Virus record (IMG/VR): IMGVR_UViG_3300010885_077086
Location: 16,776-80,775 of that record
DNA: 64,000 bases
DNA from: a virus
Direction: 5' to 3' (one strand)
In this document: piece by piece, positions 5,884-58,600 of the stretch
Numbering within the stretch: the stretch's first letter is position 1
Layout: each line of letters begins with the position of its first letter
Made by a program: the position numbers and the translations under genes
The notes under the pieces: generated by a model
Told to the model about the DNA's origin: nothing
Databases searched by the model: none
Seen by the model: the letters and a program-made list of their open reading frames with translations, nothing else

Positions 5884-7398
5884 TTAATTTATTGTTTCTT
5901 TCATTATTTTAAATGCTTCTGATGGGGTTGATGGTGGTGGCTCTGTTTTTGATAGAGCATTTAGTATCGGCCTAACATCTTGCTCTGTTAGGTACTTTAC
6001 TTCTTTTCCTGTAAGATGTGTCAAATATTTGTGAATCATATCTTTATCTGGATATTTCATTACTGAGTTAGGAGATATTGTATCTTCTTTTAAGTTAATG
6101 TGGTTTGGATTTTCTGGAAGAAGTATTCCTCTGGCAGCTAATAAGCTGCCCATTCTATCTATTATGATTCCTTTTACATTTTCTTTGTCTTGTACTTTTG
6201 TCCAACCAGATATTTCTTTTGCAAAAAGATCTGAAGACAAATTTCCTGATTCATCTTTTATATTTGAAATAAACCGTACAAGATTTCTATGTCCAAAATT
6301 AAAAGATAATCTAGTTAGAGCATCATATAGAGACCTTGGAATTTTTGCATTACTATCTAACCCAGCATTATCAATTGCGTGATTTATTATATCATCTGCC
6401 TTTATTCTTTCTGCATCTTCTTTTTTTAATTTTTTCTTCCAGTTTATTTTTCTACCATTTTTAAGCTTAATTATGCCGGTTTTAAATTCATCTTCGGTTA
6501 TTTTATGACCGTATCCTATTGTCCATCCGGTTTTTACCCTATCTTTATCTCTTTTCCAATTAAGAGATTTATTATCATTATATGGAGTATCTTGAAATCC
6601 TTCATCTGATTTTAATCCACTTATTGCAATATCTGAAAAATCCATTTCACCAACTGTTCCAACTTCATCTACAAAATAATCATTTCCAATTCTTCTTGCA
6701 AATTTTGCCATTATCTCTTTTAGATCTGGATAGGCAACCTGTGCTCTTTCGGTATGTGGAAATAATTCAGTTTGTTTTAGCTGTAAACCAGATTCTTCAA
6801 ATGTAAGATTTTGATTATATTCTTTTAAAAACTCAATAATTATATCTTTTTTATCTTCAACCTGAATATCTGGATATATTTCTTTTATTATGGTATCGGT
6901 TTGTGTTCCAATTGGAAATTCTTTTTTTAACTTTATTAAGTTTGGTGATTCTTCAAGAGAAAAATCAGCAATTTTTTCTTCAAGAATTTCTTTTCCACCA
7001 AGATTATATCCCAATGCTCCAGCAAGGCCCAATCCCAAGAAAGCACTAAGAAGCATTGACTTTATGCTGCTCTTTATTGCCGCAGCCTCTTTTCTAAATC
7101 CAAATCCCTGTAGTGCAGCCTTAACTGACTTTAGCTTTGATAGCCTTTTCTTTAGTGCGCTATTTCTTTCGCCATAATCAAGGTTCTTTCTGAAAAATTC
7201 TGGAACATCACCTTTTCCACCGCGAGGAAAAACATGACTATCATCCGAAGAGTTTTGGTGTTTGAAATATTCTATCTGACGAAGTCTTTTTTTTGCACCG
7301 GCCATTGTTTTATAGGTTCCCATGTTTCTTCCCTTTTCGGAAAAAACACGAAATTTTTCTTTACCAATTTGTTTTATATAAGATTCTTTGATAAACAT
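5884..7398 (-). CDS. Multidomain protein with TM helix and C-terminal phage lysozyme (GH24-like) domain
   Basis: LKSDEGFQDTPYND...WTIGYGHKI and DALTRLSFNFG motifs; hydrophobic LLSAFLGLGLAGALG; basic N-terminal domain (KGRNMGTYKT...AKKRLRQIEYFKH). Confidence 0.75.
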   Translation of the reverse strand: MFIKESYIKQIGKEKFRVFSEKGRNMGTYKTMAGAKKRLRQIEYFKHQNSSDDSHVFPRGGKGDVPEFFRKNLDYGERNSALKKRLSKLKSVKAALQGFGFRKEAAAIKSSIKSMLLSAFLGLGLAGALGYNLGGKEILEEKIADFSLEESPNLIKLKKEFPIGTQTDTIIKEIYPDIQVEDKKDIIIEFLKEYNQNLTFEESGLQLKQTELFPHTERAQVAYPDLKEIMAKFARRIGNDYFVDEVGTVGEMDFSDIAISGLKSDEGFQDTPYNDNKSLNWKRDKDRVKTGWTIGYGHKITEDEFKTGIIKLKNGRKINWKKKLKKEDAERIKADDIINHAIDNAGLDSNAKIPRSLYDALTRLSFNFGHRNLVRFISNIKDESGNLSSDLFAKEISGWTKVQDKENVKGIIIDRMGSLLAARGILLPENPNHINLKEDTISPNSVMKYPDKDMIHKYLTHLTGKEVKYLTEQDVRPILNALSKTEPPPSTPSEAFKIMKETIN

Positions 7399-7421
7399 GC
7401 CCTATTTTGAAAAAGTAATAG

Positions 7422-7450
7422 AAAAGGCGGGAAGTTTTCTCTTCCCGCCT
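7422..7450 (-). terminator. Rho-independent terminator
   Basis: AGGCGGGAAG/CTTCCCGCCT inverted repeat + TTTT on the minus strand. Confidence 0.75.
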
Positions 7451-7459
7451 ATCTATTGG

Positions 7460-8422
7460 CTAGTAGCGATAGCGTCCTTTCCAATCGCTATAATCACCAT
7501 CCTTCCTTGCTATACACTGCTCAACCAAGCGATTAAGACCAAGCTTCGATGCTACAGGAGCAGCAAACATTAGGTCTTGACGCCTTAGGTGAGGCAGAAT
7601 CATCTGCTGAACACCGTAATCATCGCAGGAAGCAAACTTTCCAATGACGGACTGAGGATAAGCAATTCTTTCAGTAATGACTTCATCTGGAATTGATAGA
7701 CGCTTTGCCTCTTCAATCTTATTGACAAAGATTCTGACAAGCGATTGCTTATTCTTTGCGTGGCCAGAAGAAATTAGCTCAGAAATAATATCCTCTGGAA
7801 AGATAGGACACTTCTCTGCGCAGCCAATAACATTACTCCTCTTGTCGGTATATCCCTTGCTACGCTCAATCCTAGACCATACCATAGAATAGAAGGCCGG
7901 ATCTACTGAACTGGAGAGTCCAGAATCCATCCAGAATCTGATATTCTCTTTGTTGTTCTCAATATAAGCTTGAGTTAGACGCTTTGTATAGTCAATTGTA
8001 AACTTAGGATCAGACAAAAGAGTCGAGATTGTTACTTTTGCTTGCTTTATCTCAACAGAATCAGAATCATCTGGCAGCTTATCCCAAATCTCAGAAAAAA
8101 GATTCTGAATAAACATCTTATTTTCTGAGCCAATGCCATTCTTAAACTTGGGAGAATAATAATCTGTCCAAGTGTAATAGCGACAATAAAGATCAAAAAT
8201 TCCCTTTCTATTCTCAGAAAAATTATTCCAAGTCCAAGCAAGGGCATTTGTATTCATCAGAATAGCAAACTCGTTACCTCGCTCGCCACGACTATAATAT
8301 GAATTGCTATCACAAAAAGTAGTCTTAACAGAGGCAGTAAAGAGGGCCATTAGAGTTTCATGGTCTGGCTCCCAATTGGATTCAACAGAAACAGTAGACA
8401 AAATATCCTTAAGCTGCGACAT
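7460..8422 (-). CDS. Helical (HEAT-like) repeat hypothetical protein
   Basis: 320-aa ORF, AGGAG RBS; C-terminus loosely resembles 15050..15895 and 17430..18230. Confidence 0.7.
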   Translation of the reverse strand: MSQLKDILSTVSVESNWEPDHETLMALFTASVKTTFCDSNSYYSRGERGNEFAILMNTNALAWTWNNFSENRKGIFDLYCRYYTWTDYYSPKFKNGIGSENKMFIQNLFSEIWDKLPDDSDSVEIKQAKVTISTLLSDPKFTIDYTKRLTQAYIENNKENIRFWMDSGLSSSVDPAFYSMVWSRIERSKGYTDKRSNVIGCAEKCPIFPEDIISELISSGHAKNKQSLVRIFVNKIEEAKRLSIPDEVITERIAYPQSVIGKFASCDDYGVQQMILPHLRRQDLMFAAPVASKLGLNRLVEQCIARKDGDYSDWKGRYRY

Positions 8423-8430
8423 TTTAACTC

Positions 8431-8809
8431 CTAATAGTTAAGAACTTCTTTTACCCAATTACCATCAGAATCAACATAGTGAATCCTCTTAATTCCTGCA
8501 CGACGAATATGAGTCATGCAGTAATGACAAGGACGAGAAATGCAGAGAGAACCATCCTTTCGGAAACGAGCAACCCAAAGAACATCCCTTGAGTTAGCCT
8601 TTGCCTTCTCAATTGCCTGCATTTCAGCATGACAGCAATAGGCAATTTCCTTCTTGTCTGCAAAGAACCTGCGAAACTTAGGAGAGGACTTTTCTCCGTT
8701 CGTTCCATAAATAACCGAATTACCTCGCGGAATCCACGCAATAAGGTGGAAAGGCTGGCCGTTAGAAAGGGCCGTTTCGCGAAGGAACTCCTAGAGACAC
8801 CCTTGGCAT
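8431..8809 (-). pseudogene. Zn-dependent cytidine/dCMP-deaminase-like gene split by a +1 frameshift near its 5' end
   Basis: HAE and SRPCHYC motifs lie in a frame open from 8790 to 8431 with no ATG/GTG/TTG before HAE; the AGGAGG+ATG at 8809 is one base out of frame. Confidence 0.7.
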
Positions 8810-8846
8810 GAAAACCTCCTTATATCTTTGAGCACCGTGCTCACCT

Positions 8847-8876
8847 ATAATGTACGCACCGGGAGGATAAGGTCAA
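8847..8876 (-). promoter_or_regulatory. Class-1 promoter
   Basis: TTGAC-N12-GTGCGTACATTAT. Confidence 0.75.
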
Positions 8877-8920
8877 TTGGCTAAGTGAGATTTTTTATAT
8901 TTGGTGTGTAGCGGGATATA

Positions 8921-9562
8921 CTAGGATATGTTAGTTGAAATAATTTTGTTTGATTTTTTCATATTTTCTATTTTTTCTAATGGCCTAAGATTTTCAAGGC
9001 ACCAGGCCTTTATAAAATTTTCATGCTCCATGCCATCATACTCTAGCAAAGAGTGTGGATAAATATGATCGACATGCCAATAAGAACCATAATTATTCCA
9101 ATTCATTTCTTCATCAAAATGAGATTCAAGATGTTGTTTAAGCTGAGGCAAAGTAAATGGCAAATATGACATACAAGAGCCTGACTTTTGATTGCCTTTT
9201 AGCATTTTTCTTATGGTTCGAGAAATATTTGTTCTTAATTTATAAGCACTATTATTATTTCTTTTTTCTATTTCTTTTTTATTTTTACAAGATCTACATA
9301 CGCTAGTTAAACCACTTGGCTGTATTTTATTTTTATAAAACTTATCTTTTTCTAATAAGAGATTGCAATTAGGGCACCACTTGTGGGTTTCTGTATTTAA
9401 TCTTGTACCCTTAAATTTTAGCTCATTCAATGGCTTTGCTTTTCTAATTGATTCGCATCTTTTACATTGGCTAGCGTAACCAGAAGCCGTATCATTTCTA
9501 GTGTAAAAGTTATAAATTGGCAAATTTTGATTACATTTTGAACAATTCTTATTTTCTAACAT
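8921..9562 (-). CDS. Free-standing HNH-type endonuclease with N-terminal CxxC zinc-finger repeats
   Basis: Two CxxC...CxxC units; MNWNNYGSYWHVDHIYP...CLENLRPLEKIENMKKSN HNH-like C-terminus; start ATG at 9562 after GGAG. Confidence 0.8.
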   Translation of the reverse strand: MLENKNCSKCNQNLPIYNFYTRNDTASGYASQCKRCESIRKAKPLNELKFKGTRLNTETHKWCPNCNLLLEKDKFYKNKIQPSGLTSVCRSCKNKKEIEKRNNNSAYKLRTNISRTIRKMLKGNQKSGSCMSYLPFTLPQLKQHLESHFDEEMNWNNYGSYWHVDHIYPHSLLEYDGMEHENFIKAWCLENLRPLEKIENMKKSNKIISTNIS

Positions 9563-9622
9563 TTTGGCGGAACTCCAAACCATATAAAAAAATTAGTATA
9601 TGATTTTGATTTCCGCCAAAAT
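9561..9622 (-). promoter_or_regulatory. RBS-sequestering hairpin with putative late promoter (TACTAAT) at its apex
   Basis: ATTTTGGCGGAA (9561-9572) and TTCCGCCAAAAT (9611-9622) are perfect complements; inner CATATA/TATATG; TACTAAT at 9598-9592. Confidence 0.75.
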
Positions 9623-9625
9623 TAA

Positions 9626-9994
9626 TCAATAAAGCTTCTTTCCGTTGTGGTTCCCATTACCACCAAACTCACCCACCATCTTTCCTCCAAATGAATCAGT
9701 ATGCATGATGTTTGTTGAGCCCAAATGGCAGCTCTTACCCTTATTAAACCCGGTAGAGTTTTTGTAAGCCTTCATATAAGCATTGGCATTAGTCTTATTA
9801 TCAAAGCGCATTACGGTGATCATGGTGGTCTTTCCATCCCCTGCTCCAACACCAATTGAGACGGGGGCCTTTTCTGTCTTGAGAGAGACAACGCAATCGG
9901 AACACTCGTTGATTTTTCCGCCAACCATAATCTTCTGAGCGGACTTTGTATCAAACTCTTCGCCACAATGAACGCAGGACTTAATCATTTGCAC
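9626..9994 (-). CDS. Hypothetical CxxC zinc-ribbon protein
   Basis: CVHC and CSDC; class-1 promoter upstream. Confidence 0.7.
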   Translation of the reverse strand: MQMIKSCVHCGEEFDTKSAQKIMVGGKINECSDCVVSLKTEKAPVSIGVGAGDGKTTMITVMRFDNKTNANAYMKAYKNSTGFNKGKSCHLGSTNIMHTDSFGGKMVGEFGGNGNHNGKKLY

Positions 9995-10004
9995 CTCGAC
10001 CCTA

Positions 10005-10034
10005 TTAATATATCCACCGTAGGGCGAAGATCAA
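10005..10034 (-). promoter_or_regulatory. Class-1 promoter within an imperfect hairpin
   Basis: TTGAT-N12-GTGGATATATTAA; flanks TCGACCCTAT/GTAGGGCGA pair with one bulge. Confidence 0.65.
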
Positions 10035-10051
10035 GTGGGGAACAAAAATTT

Positions 10052-10477
10052 CTAAGTTTTTTTCACGGCGTCAATTAGCCAAGAGGAAGATTGGGTCTTT
10101 CCACCGCCAACATTCCACAACATTTCTATTCCAAGCTCGGCACAAACCTCGCCCTCTGGTGTATTTCCAGCCTTTCTATCACCACCATTTGCAAAATAAT
10201 CTGGACAAATACGACGAAGGGCTTCACAAACAGTTCCATCTGAATCATCAACTGGAATTACGGATACAACTCCTTTAAATGCCATAATAATCTCTGCCCT
10301 TTCCTCCCAAGACATAAATTTATAGCCCTTCTTCCTCATGAGCCAATCGTCAGAATTAAGGATGACTACTACATCGCCATAGGTTGCTGCCTCAAGAATC
10401 ATTTTGACATGACCAGAGTGACATGGATCACAACCACCCGATACAGCTACTATTTTTCTTTTATTATCAATATTCAT
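10052..10477 (-). CDS. Cytidylyltransferase-family nucleotidyltransferase (HxGH class)
   Basis: VSGGCDPCHSGH, VILNSDDWL, FANGGDR, GGGKTQSSS motifs. Confidence 0.88.
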   Translation of the reverse strand: MNIDNKRKIVAVSGGCDPCHSGHVKMILEAATYGDVVVILNSDDWLMRKKGYKFMSWEERAEIIMAFKGVVSVIPVDDSDGTVCEALRRICPDYFANGGDRKAGNTPEGEVCAELGIEMLWNVGGGKTQSSSWLIDAVKKT

Positions 10478-10630
10478 ATTATATATCCTGTTGGAAGTAT
10501 TATCTATTAACTTAGTTACTATATATAGAGGGTTTTATATATATACTGCAAAATTTTTAAAAAGCTTAACCAAAAATAATTTTTTCTATTATTTTATTGA
10601 GAAGTGTATAAACAGTTTTATGGAGATTTT

Positions 10631-12580
10631 ATGAGAAAAGTAGATAACAGAAGTGGCATCTCAAAAAGAGCATTACTAACACCAACTTCCGCAGCAGACA
10701 TTGTTTACGCTATAGTTGGTGGCGATAGAACAGGATCTATGACTGGTGCATTTTCAAATTTAGTAAGAAATAATCCAGCAGAATTTAACAGAATTTATAA
10801 TACACTAAGTTCTGCAGAGAGAACTGCTCTTGGCAGTCATATGTCAGAAACCGGACTACTTAGAGAAATTGGATTTAGACCAGCAACAACCACTATGCCA
10901 ATTTCATATAGACCCGGAACAACAGCACTTAGGGGTGCAGGAACAGCATTGACAGGAACTGCAGAGACAGCAACTGTTGCTGCTCCTGTCGCAACAGAGG
11001 CGGCAACAGTTGCAGCGGCACCTGTCGCAACAGAAGTAGCGGCAGCAGGAGCAGGAACTGCCGCAACAGGAGCAGGAGTAACAGCCGCAGGAGCAATATC
11101 AATAGGTGCGGCAGCAGCAGCATTATTGGCATATCCAAAGATTGGACAGTTAATATATGGCGGAATTGATGAGGATCAGTTAAAAACAGGAGACCCATCT
11201 GATATATTAAGAACTGGCTTAATCAGAACTGTTCAGAATTATTGGCAGCCAATAATTGAGTGTGATGTAGCAGACTGGGACTACGGTGGAGATCTTTCAG
11301 ACATTGCAGATTTTGAAAATGCAAGAATAATAAAAAATTATGCTGACATTCTTCATGCCTCAACAACAAGCATTAGAATGAGAGATTATGCATTAAAGCA
11401 GATAACACTTGACAATATTTCTAGAGAGCTTGCCAATGCACAAGATCAGAGTGGTGGAAGTTGGGCCGCAAGATTTATAGTCGGAGGAAGAGACGATAGA
11501 TCTTATGATATGATAAGGAAAAGCCCCTGCGTAGCAAAGGGTGTGGCAGATTTCACAGGATGGGTTGCGCAGTATATTTCCACACTAAAGAGCCATGATC
11601 CTATCTTGGCAGCAAAGAGTGGTGGTGGAGAAGATAAACCAAATGTTCCACAGGGCGGTGGTAACGGCGGTGGTAATGGTGGCGGTGGAGGAGGAGTTCC
11701 AAGAACAACAAGAAACGAGAGTCTTGATTATGTTGGTGCATCAGAGATAATGATTGAAAAGGGATTCCTCGATACAGTTCAAACAAGCTGGACTCCAAAA
11801 TTCGATAGTGCATTTAGAGGCTTTGTTGATGCTGCAACAAAAGCAGCAGAAAATATTAATGATACAAAATTAGTTTCAGGTCAAACTTGGGGAGAGGCTT
11901 CTGATGAAATTGGATTCACACCAGATGCTCGCGGTGGAATAATTGCAGTAAAGAGATTGGCAAAGTTTATTGGAACAGAAAAAGTACCATCTACAACTGG
12001 AGAAGATAAGCCTGCTACACCAGAAGCACCAAAGGGAGAGGCTCCAGCAGTATCTGGAAAGGTAAATGTCTTAGCAGAGATGATTGGAATTCTTTATAAC
12101 GAAAGACTTGTTGAGGGAGGCGGATTCTTATCTTATGAAAAGAAACAAACTCAGAGTCTCGTTGATGCAATTGGTGGCGCTGGACCTTCTGGATTTCCAA
12201 ATGCTGCCAAGGTTCTTCTAAAGAGAAATCCTCAATTAGAATCAGTTGTTCCAGACAAACTAGCTACTCCAATCACAAAGAAGACAATAAAGGGAACAGA
12301 ATTGGCTACAGCCTTTAAGATGGTTCAGCAGACAATTCACGACATTTATGAGTCAGCAAATCCAGGTATGATAAATCCAGGAAAGAACAAGGCAACTGAA
12401 AATGTTAAGAAGTACCTCGGAACAATGGCTGGTGGTAGCTGGAAAGAAGCAAGCTTTTCTCAGAACCGTTTTGTAAAATTAGCCGAAGAGCGTAGAGAAA
12501 GAATTAGAAGAGAAATCGAGGCTAATTTAACTCCAGCTGAAAGAGCAGCAATGAGAAGACTAAGAGTTAGAGGAGCATAA
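10631..12580 (+). CDS. Large low-complexity protein, probable virion/internal head protein
   Basis: GGAG RBS + ATG 10631; Ala/Thr-rich stretch, hydrophobic segment, Gly linker; C-terminal domain paralogous to next gene; TTCTATTA upstream. Confidence 0.7.
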   Translation: MRKVDNRSGISKRALLTPTSAADIVYAIVGGDRTGSMTGAFSNLVRNNPAEFNRIYNTLSSAERTALGSHMSETGLLREIGFRPATTTMPISYRPGTTALRGAGTALTGTAETATVAAPVATEAATVAAAPVATEVAAAGAGTAATGAGVTAAGAISIGAAAAALLAYPKIGQLIYGGIDEDQLKTGDPSDILRTGLIRTVQNYWQPIIECDVADWDYGGDLSDIADFENARIIKNYADILHASTTSIRMRDYALKQITLDNISRELANAQDQSGGSWAARFIVGGRDDRSYDMIRKSPCVAKGVADFTGWVAQYISTLKSHDPILAAKSGGGEDKPNVPQGGGNGGGNGGGGGGVPRTTRNESLDYVGASEIMIEKGFLDTVQTSWTPKFDSAFRGFVDAATKAAENINDTKLVSGQTWGEASDEIGFTPDARGGIIAVKRLAKFIGTEKVPSTTGEDKPATPEAPKGEAPAVSGKVNVLAEMIGILYNERLVEGGGFLSYEKKQTQSLVDAIGGAGPSGFPNAAKVLLKRNPQLESVVPDKLATPITKKTIKGTELATAFKMVQQTIHDIYESANPGMINPGKNKATENVKKYLGTMAGGSWKEASFSQNRFVKLAEERRERIRREIEANLTPAERAAMRRLRVRGA

Positions 12581-19621: not shown

Positions 19622-20175
19622 AAAATGAAAAATTATTTCAAATATTTGCTTCTTCAAAAGAAAAATGGCAGCACATTAAGCTGCCAGTAAAAAAAGAGGG
19701 ATTATCTCCAGTGATGTCTAAAGAAACCTTGGATTATCACTGGGGCAAGCTATACAAGGGATATGTTGAAAAAGCAAATAACGGTATTGGTGGAGACTTT
19801 CAAAAGGCTGGTGCTTTTCTACATACAATATTTTTTGATCAATTTAAGGAGCCAAGCGGAAAAAATAATCCGACCGGATTAATTTCTGAATTAATTGACA
19901 GAGAATTTGGTGCTCTTAATAATCTAAAAGACAAAATGAAAGAAGAAGCTATGAAGATCCAAGGCTCTGGCTGGGTTTATCTTTCGCAATCAGGAAAAAT
20001 AAAGGTCATAAAAAATCATGAAATAAAAAATGATATATTGTTGCTGATAGATTGGTGGGAACATGCTTGGGCTTTGGATTACCAATCTGATAAAGAAGCT
20101 TATTTTGATAATATCTGGAAGATTATCGATTGGGATAAGATAAATAAAAAGATAGGGAAAAAAGATGAACAATAA
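19618..20175 (+). CDS. Fe/Mn superoxide dismutase
   Basis: TLDYHWGK, FLHTIFF, QGSGWVYL, DWWEHAWALDY metal-ligand motifs. Confidence 0.9.
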   Translation: MKNEKLFQIFASSKEKWQHIKLPVKKEGLSPVMSKETLDYHWGKLYKGYVEKANNGIGGDFQKAGAFLHTIFFDQFKEPSGKNNPTGLISELIDREFGALNNLKDKMKEEAMKIQGSGWVYLSQSGKIKVIKNHEIKNDILLLIDWWEHAWALDYQSDKEAYFDNIWKIIDWDKINKKIGKKDEQ

Positions 20176-20800
20176 GATTAGAGCATTAATTAAAATTTTA
20201 AAGACATCAGGAATGATTGATGTTGCAAATAATATAATAAAAATTGCACAAGACAGATCTTCTGGAATCTTTTATCACGGATCTCCAAAGAAATTTGATA
20301 CATTTGATAGAAGTAGAAGTAACTATAGGGGATTGACTTACTTTACGCCAAAAAGAGAATTTGCAGTTGCATTTGCAGGAGGAAGAGGGCTTGATAAAGG
20401 ATATGTTTACAGCATTTCATTTGCAAAGCCACTTAATCTTTTTGATGCAACAGATTTAACCAATATAGAGTCGCTTAGGCCAATAATAAAATCGCTTGTT
20501 GATGGTGGAGTAAAAGATTCTGTTACGGGAGTTGACTTTAATCCAGCTGGAAAAACAATAAATTTAAATGGTGAAGAAATAAAAAATCCAAACTCAGATC
20601 AAATGACAGAATGGATGATATGGAGGATTAAGAATAAATCCTGGAGAATTTTAGAAGGAGAAGCCGTAACCAGCTTCATAGAAGGAGCTGGTTACGACGG
20701 CATTGTAACTCAAGAAAGCGCAATAGACAATATTGGAGTTTTTGATACTTCTTTAATTAAGATAGAAAATATTGAGGAAATAGAGGTAGATCCAGATTAA
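20165..20800 (+). CDS. ADP-ribosyltransferase-like protein (polyvalent-protein ART type) with N-terminal leader
   Basis: FYHGS...F..FD, TYFTP..EFA..FA, YVY, GYDGI, IGVFD pattern; leader MNNKIRALIKIL...IIKIAQ. Confidence 0.7.
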   Translation: MNNKIRALIKILKTSGMIDVANNIIKIAQDRSSGIFYHGSPKKFDTFDRSRSNYRGLTYFTPKREFAVAFAGGRGLDKGYVYSISFAKPLNLFDATDLTNIESLRPIIKSLVDGGVKDSVTGVDFNPAGKTINLNGEEIKNPNSDQMTEWMIWRIKNKSWRILEGEAVTSFIEGAGYDGIVTQESAIDNIGVFDTSLIKIENIEEIEVDPD

Positions 20801-22719: not shown

Positions 22720-24876
22720 TTAAATTAATTTTTTTAATTCTGAGTTATTTATACCTAAAGATTTTAGAACAGATATTAGTCTTGCAACTTTAAATATCTT
22801 CCTGTCAAGAGATGCTGTAGTTGTATCTGGTGGTGCTGGGGGTAATGGAGGCAGCTGACGCGGAGGCACAACAGAACCTATCGGCTGAAAATCTCTTGCA
22901 ATTATCCAGTTATTATCTATATAAATCATTGGCTCTATTGCTGGATTGTTTTTTATATTTTCAATAATTTCATTTATTGAAAGCTTGCTCATTGCACCAT
23001 CAATATAATAATCGAATTTTGCACTTTGAATGCAAAGGTCATCAGCATATGAGAGTATCTCTTTTGCAACTTGCTTTTTATCATCTTCTGCTTGTTTAAA
23101 TATAAATCTGTTAAGATTTAACTCACTGCAGAATTTATCTATGCCCAAAGAGTTGCTCAAAGATAATATTAAGTTTTTTATATTTTGAATAACATCACTT
23201 GAAATTAAATTTGAAGGTACTTTTTCGTCAAATAAAAATCCTATTTCACTTAATTTAGATATGCTTTTTATGCTTGATATTGCGACAGGTACTAGCTCAG
23301 GGTAAACCTCTGTAATTGATTTATTTTTTGAAAAAACTCTGTTTTCAAAACTTGAAGATATATCTGGAACAAAATTGACTTTAGTAAAAAAATCAATTGG
23401 ATAATTTTTTGCAATAAATTCAGCGTTATCTTTATATAATTTTTTTATTTCTTCTTCAGATAACATATATGATATTTTTTCTTGATTTGATTCTCTAGAG
23501 GCAAATGAACTAAGATTTTTTTGATTTTCAGGATAACTAAGTGCATTAAGAAAATTTTCTTTTAATTCTTTAGAGCCATAACCAAAGGCGCTACAGTCGA
23601 GAGAAAATATTGAAGCGTGCGGAGGATCAAAATAGTTTGTTTGAACTAAATTTCTATTATCATCTCTCCATTTTAAATATGAATCAATAAATATTTTTGC
23701 ATTCTCAGGATAGTGAAGTATTTTTCCAATATAGCTTAAATCTACTTTTGCAATTTTATCAAATAATTCTTTTAATAAATCAACATTTTGATGATTAGGA
23801 TCTGATAATCTTGTATTTACAAAATTATTCATCATATCATGGTCAACTTTTTTTTCAGATTTTATTTTTAATTCTATAATTTTTAAAAAATGTTCTTTTT
23901 CAGTATCAAAGGCTTTATTGCTTCGCAGGCTATTTGTTAATGCTTCATCATCCAATATGATGTCAAGATTTTTTCTCGTTCTTCCTCTTACTTGCTCTTC
24001 GCCGCCTTTCTGGTTATACTCACCAGAATACGTCATATAATCAGATTGATCTGACGGATTCCAGCTGGTATTTTCACTAGAACCAAAATCAATATTTTCT
24101 TTTATTTGCCCTGTTTCTTTATCAAAATAACTATAGCTTAATATTTTTAAACTATCGTAATCATAAATTACAGCAACGTCTCCATCACGAGAGCCATTGA
24201 AGAGCAGTCCTCTTACCTTTGGATACAACATATTCCAAACATTAAGTGCAACATTTGAAGTATGTTCTGGCTCATAATATGGAAGTTGCTCTTCAAACTG
24301 CCAGCCTATATCTTTTAAGCCCAATAGCTTTGCTTGTGCAGCAAGAATACTTTTATATGATCCATATCTGAAGTACTTTTTAGATGGATCATATTTTCTG
24401 AATGATAATTCCTCTTTTGTTAGCGGTATATTAGTTTTTGATACCGGAACGGATCTTCCATCTTCAAAAAATACCTTAGGACTATTATCATATGGAGGAA
24501 TTAATGAAGATCCATCTTCATTATCAATTCCAACATATTTTTCAAAATTTTCTTTTGAAATTTCTTCTCTGTTTAGCTCTTTTAATAGCTGAGGATAAAG
24601 AACAGATATTGTATCTACATTAAAAGAAAAGAATCCGGTTGTATCAATTGCAAGTTTATAAATGTAGCTTCCATAGTTTCCTGCAAAAGTATTATACACT
24701 TTTTTATTATAAACTGAATATATACCAGGACCGTACATATTACCTGCACCAAGTCCGGTTATAAAATTACCAGAGGTAAGTTGCTTTTTAAAGTCATCAG
24801 GAAGAGTCTTTCCACCAGTATATACTGTTCCTAGTCTTCCATATATTTCAGCAAATTTTGATATTGGTCTATTCAT
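22720..24876 (-). CDS. Large protein with N-terminal ART-like domain and C-terminal K-x-A module
   Basis: GAGNMYGPGIYSVY, YGSYIYK, GLLFNGSRDGDVAVIYD; ends PPAPPDTTTASLDRKIFKVARLISVLKSLGI; TACTAAT upstream. Confidence 0.65.
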   Translation of the reverse strand: MNRPISKFAEIYGRLGTVYTGGKTLPDDFKKQLTSGNFITGLGAGNMYGPGIYSVYNKKVYNTFAGNYGSYIYKLAIDTTGFFSFNVDTISVLYPQLLKELNREEISKENFEKYVGIDNEDGSSLIPPYDNSPKVFFEDGRSVPVSKTNIPLTKEELSFRKYDPSKKYFRYGSYKSILAAQAKLLGLKDIGWQFEEQLPYYEPEHTSNVALNVWNMLYPKVRGLLFNGSRDGDVAVIYDYDSLKILSYSYFDKETGQIKENIDFGSSENTSWNPSDQSDYMTYSGEYNQKGGEEQVRGRTRKNLDIILDDEALTNSLRSNKAFDTEKEHFLKIIELKIKSEKKVDHDMMNNFVNTRLSDPNHQNVDLLKELFDKIAKVDLSYIGKILHYPENAKIFIDSYLKWRDDNRNLVQTNYFDPPHASIFSLDCSAFGYGSKELKENFLNALSYPENQKNLSSFASRESNQEKISYMLSEEEIKKLYKDNAEFIAKNYPIDFFTKVNFVPDISSSFENRVFSKNKSITEVYPELVPVAISSIKSISKLSEIGFLFDEKVPSNLISSDVIQNIKNLILSLSNSLGIDKFCSELNLNRFIFKQAEDDKKQVAKEILSYADDLCIQSAKFDYYIDGAMSKLSINEIIENIKNNPAIEPMIYIDNNWIIARDFQPIGSVVPPRQLPPLPPAPPDTTTASLDRKIFKVARLISVLKSLGINNSELKKLI

Positions 24877-32020: not shown

Positions 32021-32437
32021 CTAGTATGAATCGTCAAGTTCTATATCGTATCTGAATCCAATCGTTGCCTGAGGTATGCCGTTATGTTTTGTTAAAAATT
32101 TTAATATCGTCTTTTTGTCGTCAGACATTGTTGAAAACTGTCCATTATTATCAACCCATATATTTAATTCTGGAAATAGAGAAGAATATTTTAAAAACTT
32201 GTGGTGACAATCTCTTACTAGACTGAAATTTGCAACCCAAATTATTGTATTTTTTCTTTCAAAAAGATTTTGTATTCCAAGCATCATAATGCTTGTTGTC
32301 TTACCAAGCCTTCTTTTATAACCTATTACATTTTTTACTTTTTCATGGTCTGAAAACAATGCAGAAGTTATTACCTCTGTTTTGAATTCATCGGGGTCTT
32401 TTAGACCGCATCGTCTGTAAATTTCCTTCAATTCCAT
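32021..32437 (-). CDS. Small P-loop protein resembling a terminase/helicase N-terminal fragment
   Basis: GYKRRLGKTT Walker-A-like motif; only about 138 aa. Confidence 0.5.
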   Translation of the reverse strand: MELKEIYRRCGLKDPDEFKTEVITSALFSDHEKVKNVIGYKRRLGKTTSIMMLGIQNLFERKNTIIWVANFSLVRDCHHKFLKYSSLFPELNIWVDNNGQFSTMSDDKKTILKFLTKHNGIPQATIGFRYDIELDDSY

Positions 32438-32459
32438 GGTAATATTATACCAATTGAAT

Positions 32460-35016: not shown

Positions 35017-35027
35017 GGTATCTCCAA

Positions 35028-35252
35028 TTAGTGCTCTGTATGCCAGTCCCAAAAATGATCTGTTAAGATTTTTTCCCATTCTTTATCTGAGAGTCCAGAC
35101 TCTTTTGCAAGTTTATGGGCTTCTTCTTCCATCTTTTTATCAAGAAGTCTGTAGATCTTATCATAAATATCTACCATTAAGTATCCCACTCCTTTGTGAT
35201 CAAGAGCAAAACAGTTGCAGTCCAAGTGATCCAAGCCAAATATTTTAGCCAA
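35028..35252 (-). CDS. Hypothetical protein
   Basis: 74-aa ORF. Confidence 0.55.
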   Translation of the reverse strand: MAKIFGLDHLDCNCFALDHKGVGYLMVDIYDKIYRLLDKKMEEEAHKLAKESGLSDKEWEKILTDHFWDWHTEH

Positions 35253-35271
35253 TCCATTAGTTCAAGGCTAG

Positions 35272-35592
35272 TCATAGGTGGGCCACGTTAAATAATACCC
35301 ATTCCAAAACATCCGGAGAATTCTCCTTTACAAAATCAATAAAGTATTCTTTTGTAGAAGATAACCGCGAACAATGGCTAAATCTTACAGAATAAGATGT
35401 TTCTTGAACAGAGCCATTGTCTGTTACGACCCAAACTGCCGATGGAAATATTCCATCGAAAAAGTAATATTCAACCTTATTTACGATCCATCCGTTATCC
35501 TCTCCCTCTTTGTATCTCGTTACATAAATGCCGCGAGGGAAAATTTTATCAGAATATAATTGATCGTAAGTTATTTCTTCTATCTTTTGCAT
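35272..35592 (-). CDS. Hypothetical protein, 'W-x-L-F-N' family
   Basis: Ends FIDFVKENSPDVLEWVLFNVAHL. Confidence 0.75.
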   Translation of the reverse strand: MQKIEEITYDQLYSDKIFPRGIYVTRYKEGEDNGWIVNKVEYYFFDGIFPSAVWVVTDNGSVQETSYSVRFSHCSRLSSTKEYFIDFVKENSPDVLEWVLFNVAHL

Positions 35593-36110
35593 TAGTCAAG
35601 CCTAATTTTAAGGCCCATATCCTGCATCTTTAGTATTGCTTCGGCATTACCCTTTGCATCGTCAAGAGCATTATGAGAATGATTGGTTTCTCTTAGATGC
35701 TTCCACTTTGCAAAGGTATCAAGCTTTGCTCCGCAGTAAAGATCTCCAATCCTACGACTAGAGAATCCAAATGGATTTCTTCCTAGGAAAGCATGAAAGT
35801 AATAGTTGATGAAGGCAAAGTCAAATCCTGGATTGTCCGCAATAAAGATTGGGCGACCCTTGGAGTTTGCATTAATCCATTCCTCAAAGCGAGTCATAAC
35901 AGGAATAGGATCTTCAAAGCGAATCATCTGCTCTCTAGTAAACCCAGAGACAGCAAGAGACTCTGGAATCCATCGGTCAGAAATGGGCTTTAGTTCTGCA
36001 TAGAATGTTCTATTGAGACCGGCCTCTACAACTACTGCTCCAAAGGAAACCATAGAGTAAAGACCGGGAGCTGGCCCGTCTGCCTCAATATCAACAGAAA
36101 AGTAGCTCAT
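35592..36110 (-). CDS. DEDDh 3'-5' exonuclease (Rv2179c-like exoribonuclease)
   Basis: SVDIEADGP, FDFAF, HNALDDA. Confidence 0.88.
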   Translation of the reverse strand: MSYFSVDIEADGPAPGLYSMVSFGAVVVEAGLNRTFYAELKPISDRWIPESLAVSGFTREQMIRFEDPIPVMTRFEEWINANSKGRPIFIADNPGFDFAFINYYFHAFLGRNPFGFSSRRIGDLYCGAKLDTFAKWKHLRETNHSHNALDDAKGNAEAILKMQDMGLKIRLD

Positions 36111-36370
36111 TAAAACTCCGTATCCTCATCAAGCATAGAATAGTGCGGCTCTTCTTTTGTCATTTTTTGCTTAAATGCAGAAGAAAAGTAATGACGATTA
36201 AGGGAATCTACTCGCTCAATAGCTTCTTTACAGGCATTTGTCCAGCCGGATTTGTTAATTACATCTGTAGAGTCTGGAACAATATGAGATATAAGTTTTC
36301 TAATAAAATAGAGATCCTCCTCAGTAACCGGTGGAAATCCATCGATCTTAACGGTATTCTTCTTGCTCAC
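36110..36370 (-). CDS. Hypothetical protein
   Basis: GTG start after GGAGG. Confidence 0.6.
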   Translation of the reverse strand: MSKKNTVKIDGFPPVTEEDLYFIRKLISHIVPDSTDVINKSGWTNACKEAIERVDSLNRHYFSSAFKQKMTKEEPHYSMLDEDTEF

Positions 36371-36392
36371 TTTTATCCTCCGCTCCATCAAC

Positions 36393-36422
36393 AGAATATA
36401 ACCACCTATTCAGAAAAGTCAA
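36393..36422 (-). promoter_or_regulatory. Class-1 promoter
   Basis: TTGAC-N12-GTGGTTATATTCT. Confidence 0.75.
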
Positions 36423-36452
36423 GGAGGAGGTTACACCGGCCTGTTTTTAGTT

Positions 36453-36665
36453 TTAAAGCCTTGAGTTAAACTTTAGATCACCAATGTATTTCATACAAAG
36501 TTCGACAGATTCACCAAATCCAGACTCAGAATAAATTCCAAATGTTTCGTATCGAAATGGATAAGAATTCTTTGGTGTGCCCCAAATAAACCCAAGCACA
36601 TCGCCTTCTTCTGAGGTTATAATCCAACCGACATTTCCATAGATCTTTGCTTCAATTTTTTTCAT
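36453..36665 (-). CDS. Hypothetical protein
   Basis: 70-aa coupled ORF. Confidence 0.55.
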   Translation of the reverse strand: MKKIEAKIYGNVGWIITSEEGDVLGFIWGTPKNSYPFRYETFGIYSESGFGESVELCMKYIGDLKFNSRL

Positions 36666-36963
36666 CTTTTACCTTCTTAAAAATAACGGTTTCATCTGAT
36701 TCGTTGCCACGCATAAAAGCGGAAGGATTTAGCCATTCTTCGGCAATCTTTTTCTCAGAGTTATCATCTGATTCTGGCCAGCCTCTAGACTCCCAATCTT
36801 TAATCATGGCCCTCCAAACCTTTATTGGAATTTGAATCATTGCAGATTTATTATTTACTTCAAATTCGTGTCCTGATATTTCAAAATAAACATTTGAAAC
36901 ATCAAATATTTCCTGATAAAGATGATGATCTTTGCTGTATGAAATTGAAACTTTTGTGCTCAC
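36652..36963 (-). CDS. Hypothetical protein
   Basis: MSTK.SI....HLYQE.FD pattern; coupled. Confidence 0.6.
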   Translation of the reverse strand: MSTKVSISYSKDHHLYQEIFDVSNVYFEISGHEFEVNNKSAMIQIPIKVWRAMIKDWESRGWPESDDNSEKKIAEEWLNPSAFMRGNESDETVIFKKVKDEKN

Positions 36964-37595
36964 TCTATCTCCAATATTATTGGTTTATTAACAGGACGAT
37001 ACTTTCTATCGCAAGAAGAGGCATTAACAAATGTAATTCCATCAACCACTTTTGTTCCGTACCCTTCATGGATATGGCCTGATATATGGTACTTTGGCTT
37101 AATCCTATTTTGAATTTCATGCAAAAGAATATTGCATCCTGCCTTCACACCCTCCTCTGTTTCATCTAGAATTCCAAAAGGAGGGCCATGAGTTACAAGA
37201 ATATCTATTCCCTCTGGAATAGAACTCCATACTTCAATTAGTTTATCTGGATCTGCATTAAAAGCCCAGTCATAAAATCTTGGAGTCCAAGGAGAACCCC
37301 AGATTCTAAGGCCCATTACCGTAGCCTCAGAGTTCTCAATATATGTAATTGAGGGATGCTCAGAAAGAAGCATCCTTGTAAGACTTGGGTTAGTCTCTGG
37401 CAAAAAGTCATGGTTGCCAAAGCAAAGAACTTTATGCTTTGCTGGCTGCTGAGAAAACCAAAAAAGAAATGAAGTAATTTCTTGAAGAGTTCCCCGACCT
37501 GTTGCATCGCCAGCATGAATAAGAATGTCGCACTCTGGAATTTTTATTTTAGAGTGCAAATTATGTGTATCGGATATACAAACTATTTTTGGCAT
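36960..37595 (-). CDS. Metallophosphoesterase (calcineurin-like)
   Basis: ISDTH, HAGD, GNHD, THGPP, GHIHE. Confidence 0.92.
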   Translation of the reverse strand: MPKIVCISDTHNLHSKIKIPECDILIHAGDATGRGTLQEITSFLFWFSQQPAKHKVLCFGNHDFLPETNPSLTRMLLSEHPSITYIENSEATVMGLRIWGSPWTPRFYDWAFNADPDKLIEVWSSIPEGIDILVTHGPPFGILDETEEGVKAGCNILLHEIQNRIKPKYHISGHIHEGYGTKVVDGITFVNASSCDRKYRPVNKPIILEIE

Positions 37596-51641: not shown

Positions 51642-51944
51642 TTATGGTCCACAGGTATCATCGCAAAGAAGCCAAAATGCTTGGTATCTCTTTACCTTTT
51701 TTGGGTCAAATGAATGATCTTTTTTCTTATTATAAGCAATTGTTGTTTCCATATCGGCACCACCATGACTTTGCTTGTGGCCAATTACAAATCTTTCAAA
51801 TGTGTCGCCACCAGTGGTGCACTGATGTTGTGACCAATGTGGCTTCATTGCAATTTTTCTTATTATCTGATCAATCTGATCTGCTTCCTTTGTAAACCCA
51901 GCGGCATCTAACTGCTCTGCAATCTTAACTAAATTCTTTATCAT
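51642..51944 (-). CDS. Small late protein: K-x-A leader module + short C-terminal domain
   Basis: MIKNLVKIAEQLDAAGFTKEADQIDQIIRKIA; TACTAAT at 51983-51977; AGGAGAGG RBS. Confidence 0.75.
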   Translation of the reverse strand: MIKNLVKIAEQLDAAGFTKEADQIDQIIRKIAMKPHWSQHQCTTGGDTFERFVIGHKQSHGGADMETTIAYNKKKDHSFDPKKVKRYQAFWLLCDDTCGP

Positions 51945-52154
51945 AACCTCTCCTAATATCTATATTTTAAACAAAGATTAGTAGTTATTATTTTTCAGGA
52001 AAGATCTTTAAAGTAATTCTTGAAAAAAGAGTCATCCAATTAAAATAAATACGATAAAGATCCTCATCTTCTGCAACAACTTTCATTACTTTTGCAACCA
52101 TTGGATGCGGAGTAATCTTCATTGTCTTTCCAAGTTTTATTTTAAATGGCAGAA

Positions 52155-53938: not shown

Positions 53939-54241
53939 TCATACATCTTTTATGATTTCCTTCCAAGAAGATTCTGCCCACTTATGAAGAGAGCCTACAA
54001 TTCTTTTACCAAAAGAAGATGCTGGATCTAATCCAGAAAAGGCAACATAATATGGAGACTTCATCCTTCGACCATCAGCAACCTTTCTTCCAAACTCTTT
54101 GGAGAACTGATCTTTATTATGACAAAAAGAAACTCCAACTACCATAAGCAGTGATGCATCACTTTCTTTGGTTGTTACCTCATATGATAGCGTAATTGGA
54201 TGACGATGACCAGGAACTTTTACATATTGATATCGTGGCAT
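53939..54241 (-). CDS. Conserved phage hypothetical protein
   Basis: GVSFCHNKDQFSK..GR..A.GR. Confidence 0.7.
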   Translation of the reverse strand: MPRYQYVKVPGHRHPITLSYEVTTKESDASLLMVVGVSFCHNKDQFSKEFGRKVADGRRMKSPYYVAFSGLDPASSFGKRIVGSLHKWAESSWKEIIKDV

Positions 54242-54278
54242 TTTAACTCCTTTTTCTATTATTTTTTACCAAACAAAT

Positions 54279-55001
54279 ATGATTAAAAACAAAATATTTA
54301 ATTTACATGATGCTCTTATCTCAAATGGCTTTGAAAAAGAAGCCTTTGAGATAATAAAGCTTGCAGCACAAGATATTGCAGATGATCTTTTGTCAGAAGC
54401 AAGATTAAATATGGGTGTATCTGGCGCTTCTAACTGGAGAACGATAGTAAGTAAAACAAAAAGCATTTCTGTTGGAGAGATAAAATCAACACTATTGTCA
54501 CTTGGTGCAGACTTCATTAAACCATCTGGTCAGAATACTGACCATGATAAATATAGGGCCGAATCAATTATAGTTGTGGCTGATTCTTTGAAAAATAAAT
54601 CCAAATCAAGCATGATTCCATCTGAAGCCGCAGAATACTTCAATCAGACTTTCTCTCAATGTAGCGAAAGAACTTTCTTTACAGTTCAGAGGGCGGCAAA
54701 TTCATATGTTCCGGCAACTAGTTTTACTAGTAGCTTTTGGAAGTTTGTAAAGTGTCTTGCTGCTGCAAAGATAATATCTGAGTTATATCTAACATCAAAT
54801 GTGTCTATCAAGAGTCCTTCAGAAAGTCAATCAGATGATTACAAAACTATGCTTTTTGGCCTACTGTTAGAAAGAAAAGACAGAATTGAAAGAGATGCAG
54901 ATAATGCATATCAAGAGTCTGATAACGAAAGATTAATGGCACTCATTGATGAGAAAGAAGCGATTGAGTCTGAAATAAATAGCTTTTGGAGAACTATTTA
55001 G
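54279..55001 (+). CDS. Hypothetical late protein with K-x-A leader
   Basis: MIKNKIFNLHDALISNGFEKEAFEIIKLAAQ; TTCTATTA upstream. Confidence 0.7.
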   Translation: MIKNKIFNLHDALISNGFEKEAFEIIKLAAQDIADDLLSEARLNMGVSGASNWRTIVSKTKSISVGEIKSTLLSLGADFIKPSGQNTDHDKYRAESIIVVADSLKNKSKSSMIPSEAAEYFNQTFSQCSERTFFTVQRAANSYVPATSFTSSFWKFVKCLAAAKIISELYLTSNVSIKSPSESQSDDYKTMLFGLLLERKDRIERDADNAYQESDNERLMALIDEKEAIESEINSFWRTI

Positions 55002-56756: not shown

Positions 56757-56942
56757 TTATCCTGCCAATAGGCCTTTTCCTCTTCATATACTACCTGCTG
56801 TGCAGATGGAATAGCCAGAATTGTAGCCTCATCTATCAACTCAAACTCTTCTTCTTCGCGACGATCTTCTTCAACTTCTTCATAATATTCGTTTGTCATA
56901 ATATCTCCTTACTAATTTTTATGATTATTATTTGAGGTAGAA

Positions 56943-57248
56943 ATGTCTATAGCAAAAACAATAGAAAAGACACCAATGCAATCTAAGAAATTCTTGGCCT
57001 ATCTTTTGAGCAATATAGTGAATAAGGCACTTATATTTTGGATGGTTCAAAAGGGAGTTGGGGGAACTACTATAGCTTGGACAGTAACTGCGGCTGCCTT
57101 TATTGATATTGGATATATCTTAGGGCAAGCCGCATTAGATGGTTTTGTGAGAATGGCTCATGTAAAAGGATCTTCTATTATAAAGTCAGCAAAAAATATT
57201 AAGACTGACTCCATCGAGGAAAGCGGCGACCAGCCGACTCTTCCCTAG
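56943..57248 (+). CDS. Holin-like two-TM membrane protein
   Basis: SKKF + hydrophobic helices + YILGQ; TACTAAT upstream; near a GH73 hydrolase. Confidence 0.55.
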   Translation: MSIAKTIEKTPMQSKKFLAYLLSNIVNKALIFWMVQKGVGGTTIAWTVTAAAFIDIGYILGQAALDGFVRMAHVKGSSIIKSAKNIKTDSIEESGDQPTLP

Positions 57249-57522
57249 ATTCCCATTCATCAATATCTTCTTCATCTGGATCTTCTTGGCCAAACTCTGC
57301 TGCTTGATATCTATTTAGATCTTCAATCTCTTCTTCTGAAAGCTCTTCATCTGCACCTTCAAGAAGTGACTCAATATCTTCTTCTGTTGCATATCCAACA
57401 TCAGATTCGGTATCATCAGTCTGTGATGCAACGCGCCTGATAATTACGTCTACAATATCTGACTCCTTCTTAAATCCTGCCTTATCAAGCTCTTGTGCAA
57501 TTTTTACTAAGTTTTTTAACAT
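57199..57522 (-). CDS. Small late protein: K-x-A leader + acidic tail
   Basis: MLKNLVKIAQELDKAGFKKESDIVDVIIRRVAS, then D/E-rich. Confidence 0.75.
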   Translation of the reverse strand: MLKNLVKIAQELDKAGFKKESDIVDVIIRRVASQTDDTESDVGYATEEDIESLLEGADEELSEEEIEDLNRYQAAEFGQEDPDEEDIDEWESREESAGRRFPRWSQS

Positions 57523-57565
57523 TGAAACCTCGCTTTACTAATATGAATATGATTAATAGAGTTTT

Positions 57566-58600
57566 ATGAATAAAATTATAAGAAAAAATAAACTTAACTA
57601 CCTTTTTAAGATTGCCAGCGACAATCTTATGTCAATTTGGTCTGTTTCAAGACCTCAAAGATTTTCAGAAGATGAATCTGGTCTAAATTCTTGGATTAAT
57701 GATATAAAATCAAAGATTGGAACAGATGATGAAACAATTTTGGCAGGAATATTAAGGGATGAACTTAATCCAATTGTACTATCCTCAATGGAAGATTGGC
57801 AAGATTTTTCTGTTATATTTCCAAAGGGAGAGGAAATAAGAAAGGCTTGGAAGAAAAATGGAGATAAAACATTTTTTTCTTTCTTGGATTGGACAAAAAA
57901 ATCTGGCGTATCAAACTTGCAGGCTGCATTAGATAAGATAAATAGCCTTCAGTCTAAGCCAATGGAGCCTGTGAGTATTAAGGCTCCAGCTAAGCCAGAA
58001 AATGTCCAAAATATGGTAGAGAAAAGTACCTCAAATGGTGCTAAATCTACCGGTGATACTTGGCTAATGGAAATTTCTGATGCCGTTAAGTCTATCTCTA
58101 ATGCAAATGGTATTCCAGAGGGAATTATTTTTGCACAAGGAGCATTAGAATCAAGCTATGGTAAAAATCACATTGGCGGATTTAATTATTTTGGAATGAA
58201 GGGAGAAGGCACCGCTGGCTCTATTTCTGCAAAAACAAAAGAAGAATTTAAGCCAGGAGAAATGTCAACAATAAAAGATAAGTTTAAAAGATTTAACAAC
58301 ATAGAAGAGGGCTTTCAGTCTTATGCAAATCTATTAAAACAAAGCAATAGATTCTCCTATGCAACACAAGCCTTCTCAGATGATCCTGCAAAATTTGCAA
58401 TATGGATTTGGGGCAGAGGCTATGCTACCGACTCCAAATATCCAGATAAACTTTCTTCTATTTCAAAAAATATTGCTCAAAAGCTGGGCAGACCAGATTT
58501 AGCTTGGGATTATGATGCAGAAGAAAGAAGAATTATAGATACTCTATCTTCTATGCGACCAGAAGATAGAGTATCTAAGACTGTTGAGTTATTAAAATAA
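57566..58600 (+). CDS. Glucosaminidase (GH73/FlgJ-like) peptidoglycan hydrolase with N-terminal extension
   Basis: AQGALESSYG, NYFGMKG, TKEE, FKRF, GYATD..Y..KL; TACTAAT at 57536. Confidence 0.85.
   Translation: MNKIIRKNKLNYLFKIASDNLMSIWSVSRPQRFSEDESGLNSWINDIKSKIGTDDETILAGILRDELNPIVLSSMEDWQDFSVIFPKGEEIRKAWKKNGDKTFFSFLDWTKKSGVSNLQAALDKINSLQSKPMEPVSIKAPAKPENVQNMVEKSTSNGAKSTGDTWLMEISDAVKSISNANGIPEGIIFAQGALESSYGKNHIGGFNYFGMKGEGTAGSISAKTKEEFKPGEMSTIKDKFKRFNNIEEGFQSYANLLKQSNRFSYATQAFSDDPAKFAIWIWGRGYATDSKYPDKLSSISKNIAQKLGRPDLAWDYDAEERRIIDTLSSMRPEDRVSKTVELLK

Follow-up and report, generated by a model that had tools for sequence, protein, structure and literature searches.

We examined a 64,000-nucleotide window of viral DNA (bases 16776–80775 of the 80,775-bp IMG/VR record IMGVR_UViG_3300010885_077086), in which a first-pass annotation had noticed a shared peptide on many unrelated proteins and had interpreted it as a tag that loads them into the phage head and is cleaved after a K-x-A tripeptide. 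Two genes in the window encode this peptide in canonical form, as a 33-amino-acid (aa) module, and the module belongs to an undescribed, virus-only family that is larger than the annotation saw. Because the module is also present in head-assembly genes of related phages, it may be a phage-head docking tag.

A virus-only family of 33-residue modules

Both canonical carrier genes lie on the minus strand. Gene 57199–57522 encodes a 107-aa protein in which the module (aa 1–33; positions 57424–57522, minus strand, alignments A1 and A3) is followed by a long acidic tail, and gene 51642–51944 encodes a 100-aa protein in which the module (aa 1–32; aligned over positions 51846–51944, minus strand) is followed by a Cys-containing, LysM-like C-terminal part. 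The two N-termini are present exactly as first quoted, and they match each other in a two-sequence hidden Markov model (HMM) as well as broader family HMMs, with E values of 1e-19 to 1e-26 (2e-19 to 3e-25 for gene 57199–57522 against the family HMM). In the orthologues of the 57199–57522 product (P0002–P0017), the first 33 residues are near-invariant and the acidic tail diverges freely. L010, P0034 and P0053 are homologues of the 51642–51944 product; the Pfam LysM profile did not match this copy and matched 2 of 95 carriers. At the nucleotide level the module segments 51846–51944 and 57424–57522 are 62% identical, and they use different codons for 60% of the identical residues, which points to selection on the protein rather than on a DNA cassette. 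Paralogous modules within one genome behave in the same way, with about 60% DNA identity and different codons at 40–70% of identical residues.

A profile built from three copies was run against 1.84 billion representative proteins and detected 1,113 clusters at E≤1e-3, of which 33 reached E≤1e-10, and an iterated HMM search that included reversed and shuffled decoys returned 195 matches and no decoys. The family has the consensus MLKELIKLANELDKKGLTKEADYLDSIIKKVAS, with a core (L5, A9, L12, D13, G16, K19, E20, A21, D22 and D25) that is about 75–100% conserved; within it D13, G16, E20 and D25 reach 95–100%, and D13 and D25 are essentially invariant. The first copy begins no more than 12 residues from the start in 171 of 190 carriers, and 37 of the 190 hold two or three copies, some of them internal or C-terminal. 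The parts attached to the module are unrelated to one another (acidic tails, LysM-like parts, zinc ribbons, coiled coils and unknown domains of 180–700 aa), and Pfam recognises almost none of them. The non-module parts are short (median length 144 aa) and strongly acidic, with a median isoelectric point (pI) of 4.55 and 68% below pI 5, compared with 17% of the proteins of this contig; in some carriers a hydrophobic segment directly follows the module. This is a sharply defined sequence family under protein-level selection. The proposal of a portable, virus-specific N-terminal module on unrelated proteins was borne out, in that relatives in metagenomes and in IMG/VR carry it at the start of the open reading frame (ORF).

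AlphaFold2, supplied with a 51-sequence alignment, predicted the module of gene 57199–57522 to be a helical hairpin (helix 2–15, a turn at G16, helix 18–36) at a predicted local distance difference test score (pLDDT) of about 90. A natural protein with two modules, P0055, was predicted from its single sequence to be compact, with a predicted template modelling score (pTM) of 0.64, which is compatible with hairpins packing together. Foldseek found no match to the module in the Protein Data Bank (PDB) at E≤0.001, and the only structures it returned were designed hairpins, at E>5.

The module is absent from Pfam, has a single weak match in PHROGs (phrog_27110, E 0.002), and had no match among PDB sequences at E≤10 and no usable match in the ESM Atlas. 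A full-text literature search for its motif strings returned only irrelevant matches, a cluster look-up of module proteins returned only metagenomic, unnamed proteins, and a tblastn search of the cultured-phage collection INPHARED with a module protein found no match. We also found the module to be absent from phage G, from Tunturi_5 and from the uncultured megaphage records LR745208 and LR756501.

Module genes and head genes in related phages

CheckV estimated the source record to be about 40% complete, which would make the whole genome roughly 200 kb. The contig encodes an Asn/Asp-type tRNA synthetase, seryl-tRNA synthetase, acyl-CoA dehydrogenase, cytochrome c peroxidase, phosphoglucomutase, DNA ligase and RNA ligase, and the N-terminus of a GroEL-like protein was read by eye in its upstream part. 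The 80,775-bp contig yielded no capsid, portal or terminase gene, and a megablast search with 10 kb of its DNA gave no DNA-level match among cultured phages. A syntenic IMG/VR relative (L001; 71,983 bp, 86–97% identical) holds the orthologue of gene 57199–57522 without gene 51642–51944, which is an insertion or loss relative to L001 (window 51945–51987 versus L001 15529–15561). L017, which is more distantly related, has another module-bearing gene (151 aa) in the place after the seryl-tRNA synthetase gene.

Among 185,579 prokaryote species genomes there was a single module locus, on an 8.4-kb contig of a metagenome-assembled genome (L018), where it directly follows the gene for the major head protein. 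The capsid protein encoded there (phrog_2522) shares 49.5% identity with gp27 of Bacillus phage G, and the same capsid family occurs in the module-carrying contigs G003, G005 and G006. On these sequence relationships, the module is specific to a clade of uncultivated huge phages with a phage G-like capsid protein. Copy numbers in IMG/VR contigs ranged from 23 in G004 (223 kb) and 10 in G003 (232 kb) to 6 in G005, 4 in G006 and 3 in G007. Many copies are clustered: G004 has a tandem array of some 14 module matches in about 9 kb (53–62 kb), and nine arrayed genes at 28–46 kb of G003 begin with the module. On a 12.5-kb metagenomic contig (L014, MDTB01116585.1; positions 2283–12065), three clear module genes and a gene for a 700-aa protein with a degenerate copy adjoin the gene for a 661-aa protein with tail-fibre PHROG matches.

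In three of these contigs module copies lie among the head genes themselves. The head operon of G003, whose gene order we checked by PHROGs and by homology to phage G gp19, starts with the large terminase, the portal, a 503-aa protein and a 179-aa protein with an internal module (independent E value [i-E] 2e-6), and continues with a 752-aa protein and a 1,070-aa fusion protein that contains a head-maturation-protease domain (phrog_18299). After the protease fusion comes a second 179-aa protein, which is acidic and ends in two degenerate C-terminal modules (i-E 3e-3), and then three genes that precede the capsid gene (155014–156024). The head operon of G006 is syntenic with that of G003. In G005, the second gene after the protease fusion encodes a 117-aa protein whose short N-terminal helix is joined through a long K/E-rich stretch to a C-terminal module (E 2.4e-4), and further module genes are interleaved with head genes. 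At the equivalent position phage G encodes gp20, a small charged protein that has no module. A helical hairpin at the end of a charged protein, together with a gene position between protease and capsid, is the layout of a scaffolding protein, of which P22 gp8 is an example.

The maturation protease of these relatives was detected solely through homology to phage G gp19: PF03420, the T4-type protease family, had no match in five contigs and did not match the control genomes either, and the protease family PF04586 was not found in the contigs searched. The gp19-like domain forms the N-terminal part of proteins of 1,070–1,156 aa (G003 147332–150544; G005, L036 8557–12027; G006 33725–37066). The C-terminus was tested in the G005 protein and is similar there to gp21 of phage G, an arrangement that suggests gene fusion when set against phage G.

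Consecutive head-operon proteins of L036 (G005 140000–158007), L046 and L042 (both G003) and L047 (G006) share another N-terminal motif, which takes the forms …EVMREF.KI…, …LVMREYARIAGEKNFVKTAAD, …EMMRNLAKLLDVDMVKTAAKK, …AQEFAKILGVKQDGIEKSASL and …AQEFSRLVGKSQSIKKVAQSE and ends in K-[TSV]-A-[ASQ] 25–40 residues from the start. This motif could be a propeptide or protease-site signature. No motif common to the upstream regions of capsid and module genes was visible.

Weaker candidate carriers and the K-x-A tripeptide

Most of the further carriers listed by the first-pass annotation failed, and in the window two canonical copies and one divergent copy hold up. Genes 57199–57522 and 51642–51944 match the family HMM with its core residues; the lysozyme segment, the cyanophycinase, the 54279 protein and the ART protein do not. 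Family HMMs gave the weaker candidates E values of 0.2–10, the same as reversed or shuffled decoys, and the iterated search left ART 20165, 54279, the cyanophycinase and a 411-aa protein at decoy level (E 2–10). We also scored 20,748 ungapped segments with a position-specific scoring matrix (PSSM), using 200 shuffles as the null. Behind the two true copies came the lysozyme segment (10.3 bits), part of a 226-aa protein whose gene lies upstream of the window (9.6 bits), the cyanophycinase leader and 54279, and ranks 2–4 exceeded 99.5–100% of the shuffles.

The divergent copy lies within a lysozyme fusion of 504 aa (5884–7398, minus strand), which comprises a small N-terminal domain, the internal module, a Gly/Ala-rich hydrophobic segment and a lysozyme domain at aa 264–412 (Pfam Phage_lysozyme). 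The module-like segment (aa 85–118; positions 7045–7146, minus strand) was the best non-canonical PSSM match and reached E 0.19 with the family HMM alone. It gains independent support from a homologue in G005: the first 115 aa of the fusion align with protein L036_14398_15177 (E 8e-7), in which the matching segment is a module that the HMM detects. The small domain at aa 1–84 (window 7147–7398, minus strand; KFRVFSEKGRNMGTYKT..AKKRLRQIEYFK) is common to L036_14398_15177 and, by eye, to L032_7606_8628. The module follows the small domain in all three proteins, and the hydrophobic segment comes next in the window protein and in L032_7606_8628.

For the cyanophycinase the outcome was mixed, in that its leader is virus-specific and its homology to the module is unproven. 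The leader, which starts from Met9 of ORF 32436–33185 (32460–32555, plus strand), is helical and took PSSM rank 3 (6.3 bits); viral orthologues share it (P0167–P0191, of a clade that takes in P0167–P0201), and cellular cyanophycinases lack it. Its similarity to the module was not significant in hhalign (score 11.8; permutation p about 0.05, 5% of column permutations being as good), and it is possibly a degenerate module. More distant viral cyanophycinases have, in place of this hairpin-type leader, a single helix that ends in [FL]-[LY]-K-[IL]-A-[TK]. Members of the viral clade are 58–94% identical to one another and at most 46% identical to cellular enzymes, and they have two interchangeable leader types; two viral cyanophycinases of 371 aa have an extra 150-aa N-terminal extension.

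The remaining candidates (54279, the ART protein, the C-terminus of a 739-aa protein and the short K-x-A cases) could not be told from decoys. The N-terminus of the 240-aa protein encoded from 54279 (54279–54374, plus strand) has module-like elements (MIKN..., GFEKEA and IIKLA) and took PSSM rank 4 (5.3 bits), with homology unproven; its orthologue in L001/L002 is 77% identical. The 29-aa helical N-terminal extension of the ART-PolyVal protein (20165–20251, plus strand), in which the Pfam ART-PolyVal domain starts at aa 35, scored −0.2 bits, within the shuffle null. A search for related loci with the ART protein found nothing, and orthologues of the ART protein and of the cyanophycinase were not present in two related records examined. 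The C-terminus of the 739-aa product of 22720–24876 fell outside the top PSSM matches.

K-x-A, which had been put forward as the protease site, did not hold. A longer form, [KR]-K-[VIL]-A-[SAQ], ends 64–85% of N-terminal module copies (K/R 85%, A/S 85%), where it coincides with the end of helix 2; K-x-A is missing from most internal and C-terminal copies. The hairpin-type leaders of the cyanophycinases end in K-V-H, and K-x-A is not conserved among cyanophycinase orthologues. Bare K-[ILVFMT]-A was not enriched at N-termini of the contig's proteins (18 in 5,320 versus 48 in 20,444 residues, p=0.12), and K.A came 84th of 355 when all a-x-b pairs were scanned without bias, so we rejected the bare tripeptide as a signal. 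A pattern defined post hoc, after the examples had been seen, h-x-K-h-A-[SQNEA], was enriched at N-termini (9 versus 6, p about 1e-3), replicated weakly in related loci (p about 0.01) and recurs near the N-termini of head-operon proteins. It offers a possible lead to a second leader type or a protease site, and is not evidence of cleavage.

The suggested link between module genes and an upstream TACTAAT motif stood in part. Of 17 TACTAAT sites, ten precede a gene start on the same strand by no more than 80 nt, among them sites upstream of 51642 (33 nt), the GH73 gene 57566, 14295 and 24932, and the motif does not precede 57199, 54279 or the lysozyme and cyanophycinase genes. The description of the carriers as late proteins was not supported, as the contig has no structural gene by which promoter classes could be calibrated. 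A different motif, TTCTATTA[TC]TTTT, is common to the regions 10–25 nt before 54279 (plus strand), the lysozyme fusion at 7398 (minus strand) and a 658-aa gene at 10604 (plus strand), with sites within 54240–54278, 7399–7440 and 10560–10603 of the window. This motif may represent a second promoter class or a translation signal.

A proposed docking hairpin and its alternatives

The closest functional parallel is in phage T4, in which the internal proteins IPI–III and Alt have an N-terminal capsid targeting sequence (CTS) as their only shared feature, and the CTS places these diverse, fast-evolving proteins in the scaffold core (PMC3012670). The module resembles the CTS in being a short N-terminal element on unrelated proteins (two canonical copies here and 3–23 per related contig) whose genes, like those of the T4 internal proteins, are clustered and have variable bodies. 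The CTS is about 10 residues long and is removed by T4 gp21, whereas the module is a predicted folded hairpin of 33 residues with no sequence similarity to it, is also found internally, C-terminally and in tandem, and is attached to acidic rather than basic tails. Nor was a conserved removal site of the gp21 type found: internal module copies mostly lack K-x-A, and cyanophycinase leaders of the hairpin type lack it as well.

A second parallel is the scaffolding protein gp8 of phage P22 (PDB 2GP8), which has a basic, C-terminal helix-turn-helix coat-binding domain that loads foreign proteins into procapsids when fused to them. As in gp8, a small hairpin ends an elongated, charged head-operon protein in G005 (117 aa, E 2.4e-4) and G003 (179 aa, i-E 3e-3). 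Unlike gp8, the module has acidic conserved residues, is N-terminal in most copies and on non-scaffold proteins, and gave neither a PDB sequence match (E≤10) nor a Foldseek match (E≤0.001). The heads of the giant phages SPN3US and phiKZ contain many proteins, including 21 'paralog B' proteins in SPN3US, and head proteins of these phages have N-terminal propeptides that are cut by the prohead protease (PMC10052503). The module phages belong to a different lineage, with a phage G-like capsid protein. Propeptides of SPN3US and phiKZ are long and do not share a single conserved module, and their cleavage takes place at a motif with a final glutamate.

We favour, tentatively and at somewhat less than an even chance, a reading of these sequence data in which the module is a docking hairpin through which tagged proteins are brought to a component of head assembly. 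The hairpin would be a folded, portable protein–protein docking domain that binds one putative phage-encoded partner in the assembling head, be it the shell interior, the scaffold core or the portal. The protein in the scaffold position would use the hairpin for assembly, and through it other carriers would enter the prohead and perhaps reach the host. The hairpin would act through binding, and not as a disposable leader cut at K-x-A. A head-assembly partner is favoured chiefly because of the module copies in head-operon context. What remains of the originally proposed head-loading tag is its portability, together with an indirect genomic link to head assembly through copies inside the terminase–portal–protease–capsid operon of relatives; the cleavage site does not remain. 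A narrower version, which we regard as doubtful, would have the scaffold-position protein and a large, fast-diversifying set of cargo packaged in the head share the hairpin as the element by which they bind the capsid or core, and so make it a natural, modular encapsidation tag that marks the injected arsenal of huge phages directly in their sequences.

Several observations weigh against docking in the head. The contig represents about 40% of its genome and has no head gene, so the link to the head comes from relatives, some of them distant. Most arrays (G003 33–42 kb, G004 53–62 kb) are far from the head operon, and in the scaffold position the module matches weakly (i-E 2e-3 to 3e-3). The tails are strongly acidic (median pI 4.55), in contrast to the basic internal proteins of T4, and the hydrophobic segment that follows the module in some carriers also fits membrane proteins. 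In addition, the compact two-module model was built without an alignment.

Some of the same observations would fit a general self-association or docking domain unrelated to capsids, which would dimerise small acidic proteins of a fast-evolving family (for instance DNA mimics or other host-takeover or anti-defence proteins) through a four-helix bundle and for which the head-operon copies would be incidental. Such a domain would account for tails that are short as well as strongly acidic (median pI 4.55, median length 144 aa), for the predicted packing of hairpins in two-module proteins, for the arrays that lie away from head genes, and for the position of the window's carriers amid metabolic and translation genes. 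A plain dimerisation domain, however, need not occupy residue 1 in 90% of carriers, and the module recurs in the head operon of three genomes and directly after the capsid gene in a fourth; moreover, carriers with LysM, lysozyme or zinc-ribbon parts are not DNA mimics. We consider this explanation rather unlikely. More improbable is the model first proposed, in which a capsid-targeting leader is cut by the prohead protease after K-x-A and ART, cyanophycinase, GH73, SOD and other proteins are the cargo. In its favour are the [KR]-K-[VIL]-A-[SAQ] ending of 64–85% of N-terminal copies, the maturation-protease homologue of relatives, and the h-x-K-h-A-[SQNEA] pattern, which is enriched at N-termini here and in related loci, forms the alternative leader of viral cyanophycinases and occurs near the N-termini of head-operon proteins adjoining the protease. 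These points are offset by internal and C-terminal copies that mostly lack K-x-A, the K-V-H ending of the hairpin-type cyanophycinase leaders, a bare tripeptide that is not enriched, an enriched hexamer that was defined post hoc, and listed weak carriers that score like decoys. A simple removable leader also accords poorly with the 37 of 190 carriers that have two or three copies, some internal or C-terminal, and near-invariance over 33 residues exceeds what a disposable leader needs.

Two further alternatives have much less in their favour. The module shares with the SAP, HeH and Rho_N motifs two short helices, a Gly-containing turn, a length of about 35 residues and wide fusion to other proteins, and the L-x3-L-x3-G-[LF] spacing of helix 1 and the turn resemble SAP by eye, though not by any tool; it could on these grounds be a helix-extended-helix motif that binds nucleic acid. 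Yet its loop is shorter, its conserved residues (D13, E20, D22 and D25) are acidic, as are the tails, and 11 module sequences matched no SAP, HeH or Rho_N profile of Pfam at E≤10, for which we rejected this very improbable assignment; PDB sequences and folds gave no significant match either. We give almost no credence to chance, or to a conserved nucleotide cassette at gene 5′ ends, such as a promoter or recombination element. The conserved part does always include the gene start, and T4-type phages are reported to shuffle genes via 5′ regulatory cassettes (PMC2839356), which would favour a cassette. A nucleotide identity of about 0.6 with 40–70% synonymous differences at conserved residues, the existence of internal and C-terminal copies, and 1,113 clusters with no decoy matches all speak against it, and the codon differences between paralogous modules contradict a cassette at the nucleotide level.

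Even without a link to the head, the module constitutes a virus-only domain family with more than 1,100 clusters and up to 23 copies per contig, which merits a family entry and a structure. If the docking hairpin is indeed a head tag, sequence alone would reveal which proteins a whole clade of uncultivated huge phages packages and probably injects. Such a list would run to hundreds of entries (small acidic proteins, cell-wall binders and enzymes, all uncharacterised), and the 33 residues of the hairpin would provide a natural tag for loading proteins into large capsids.

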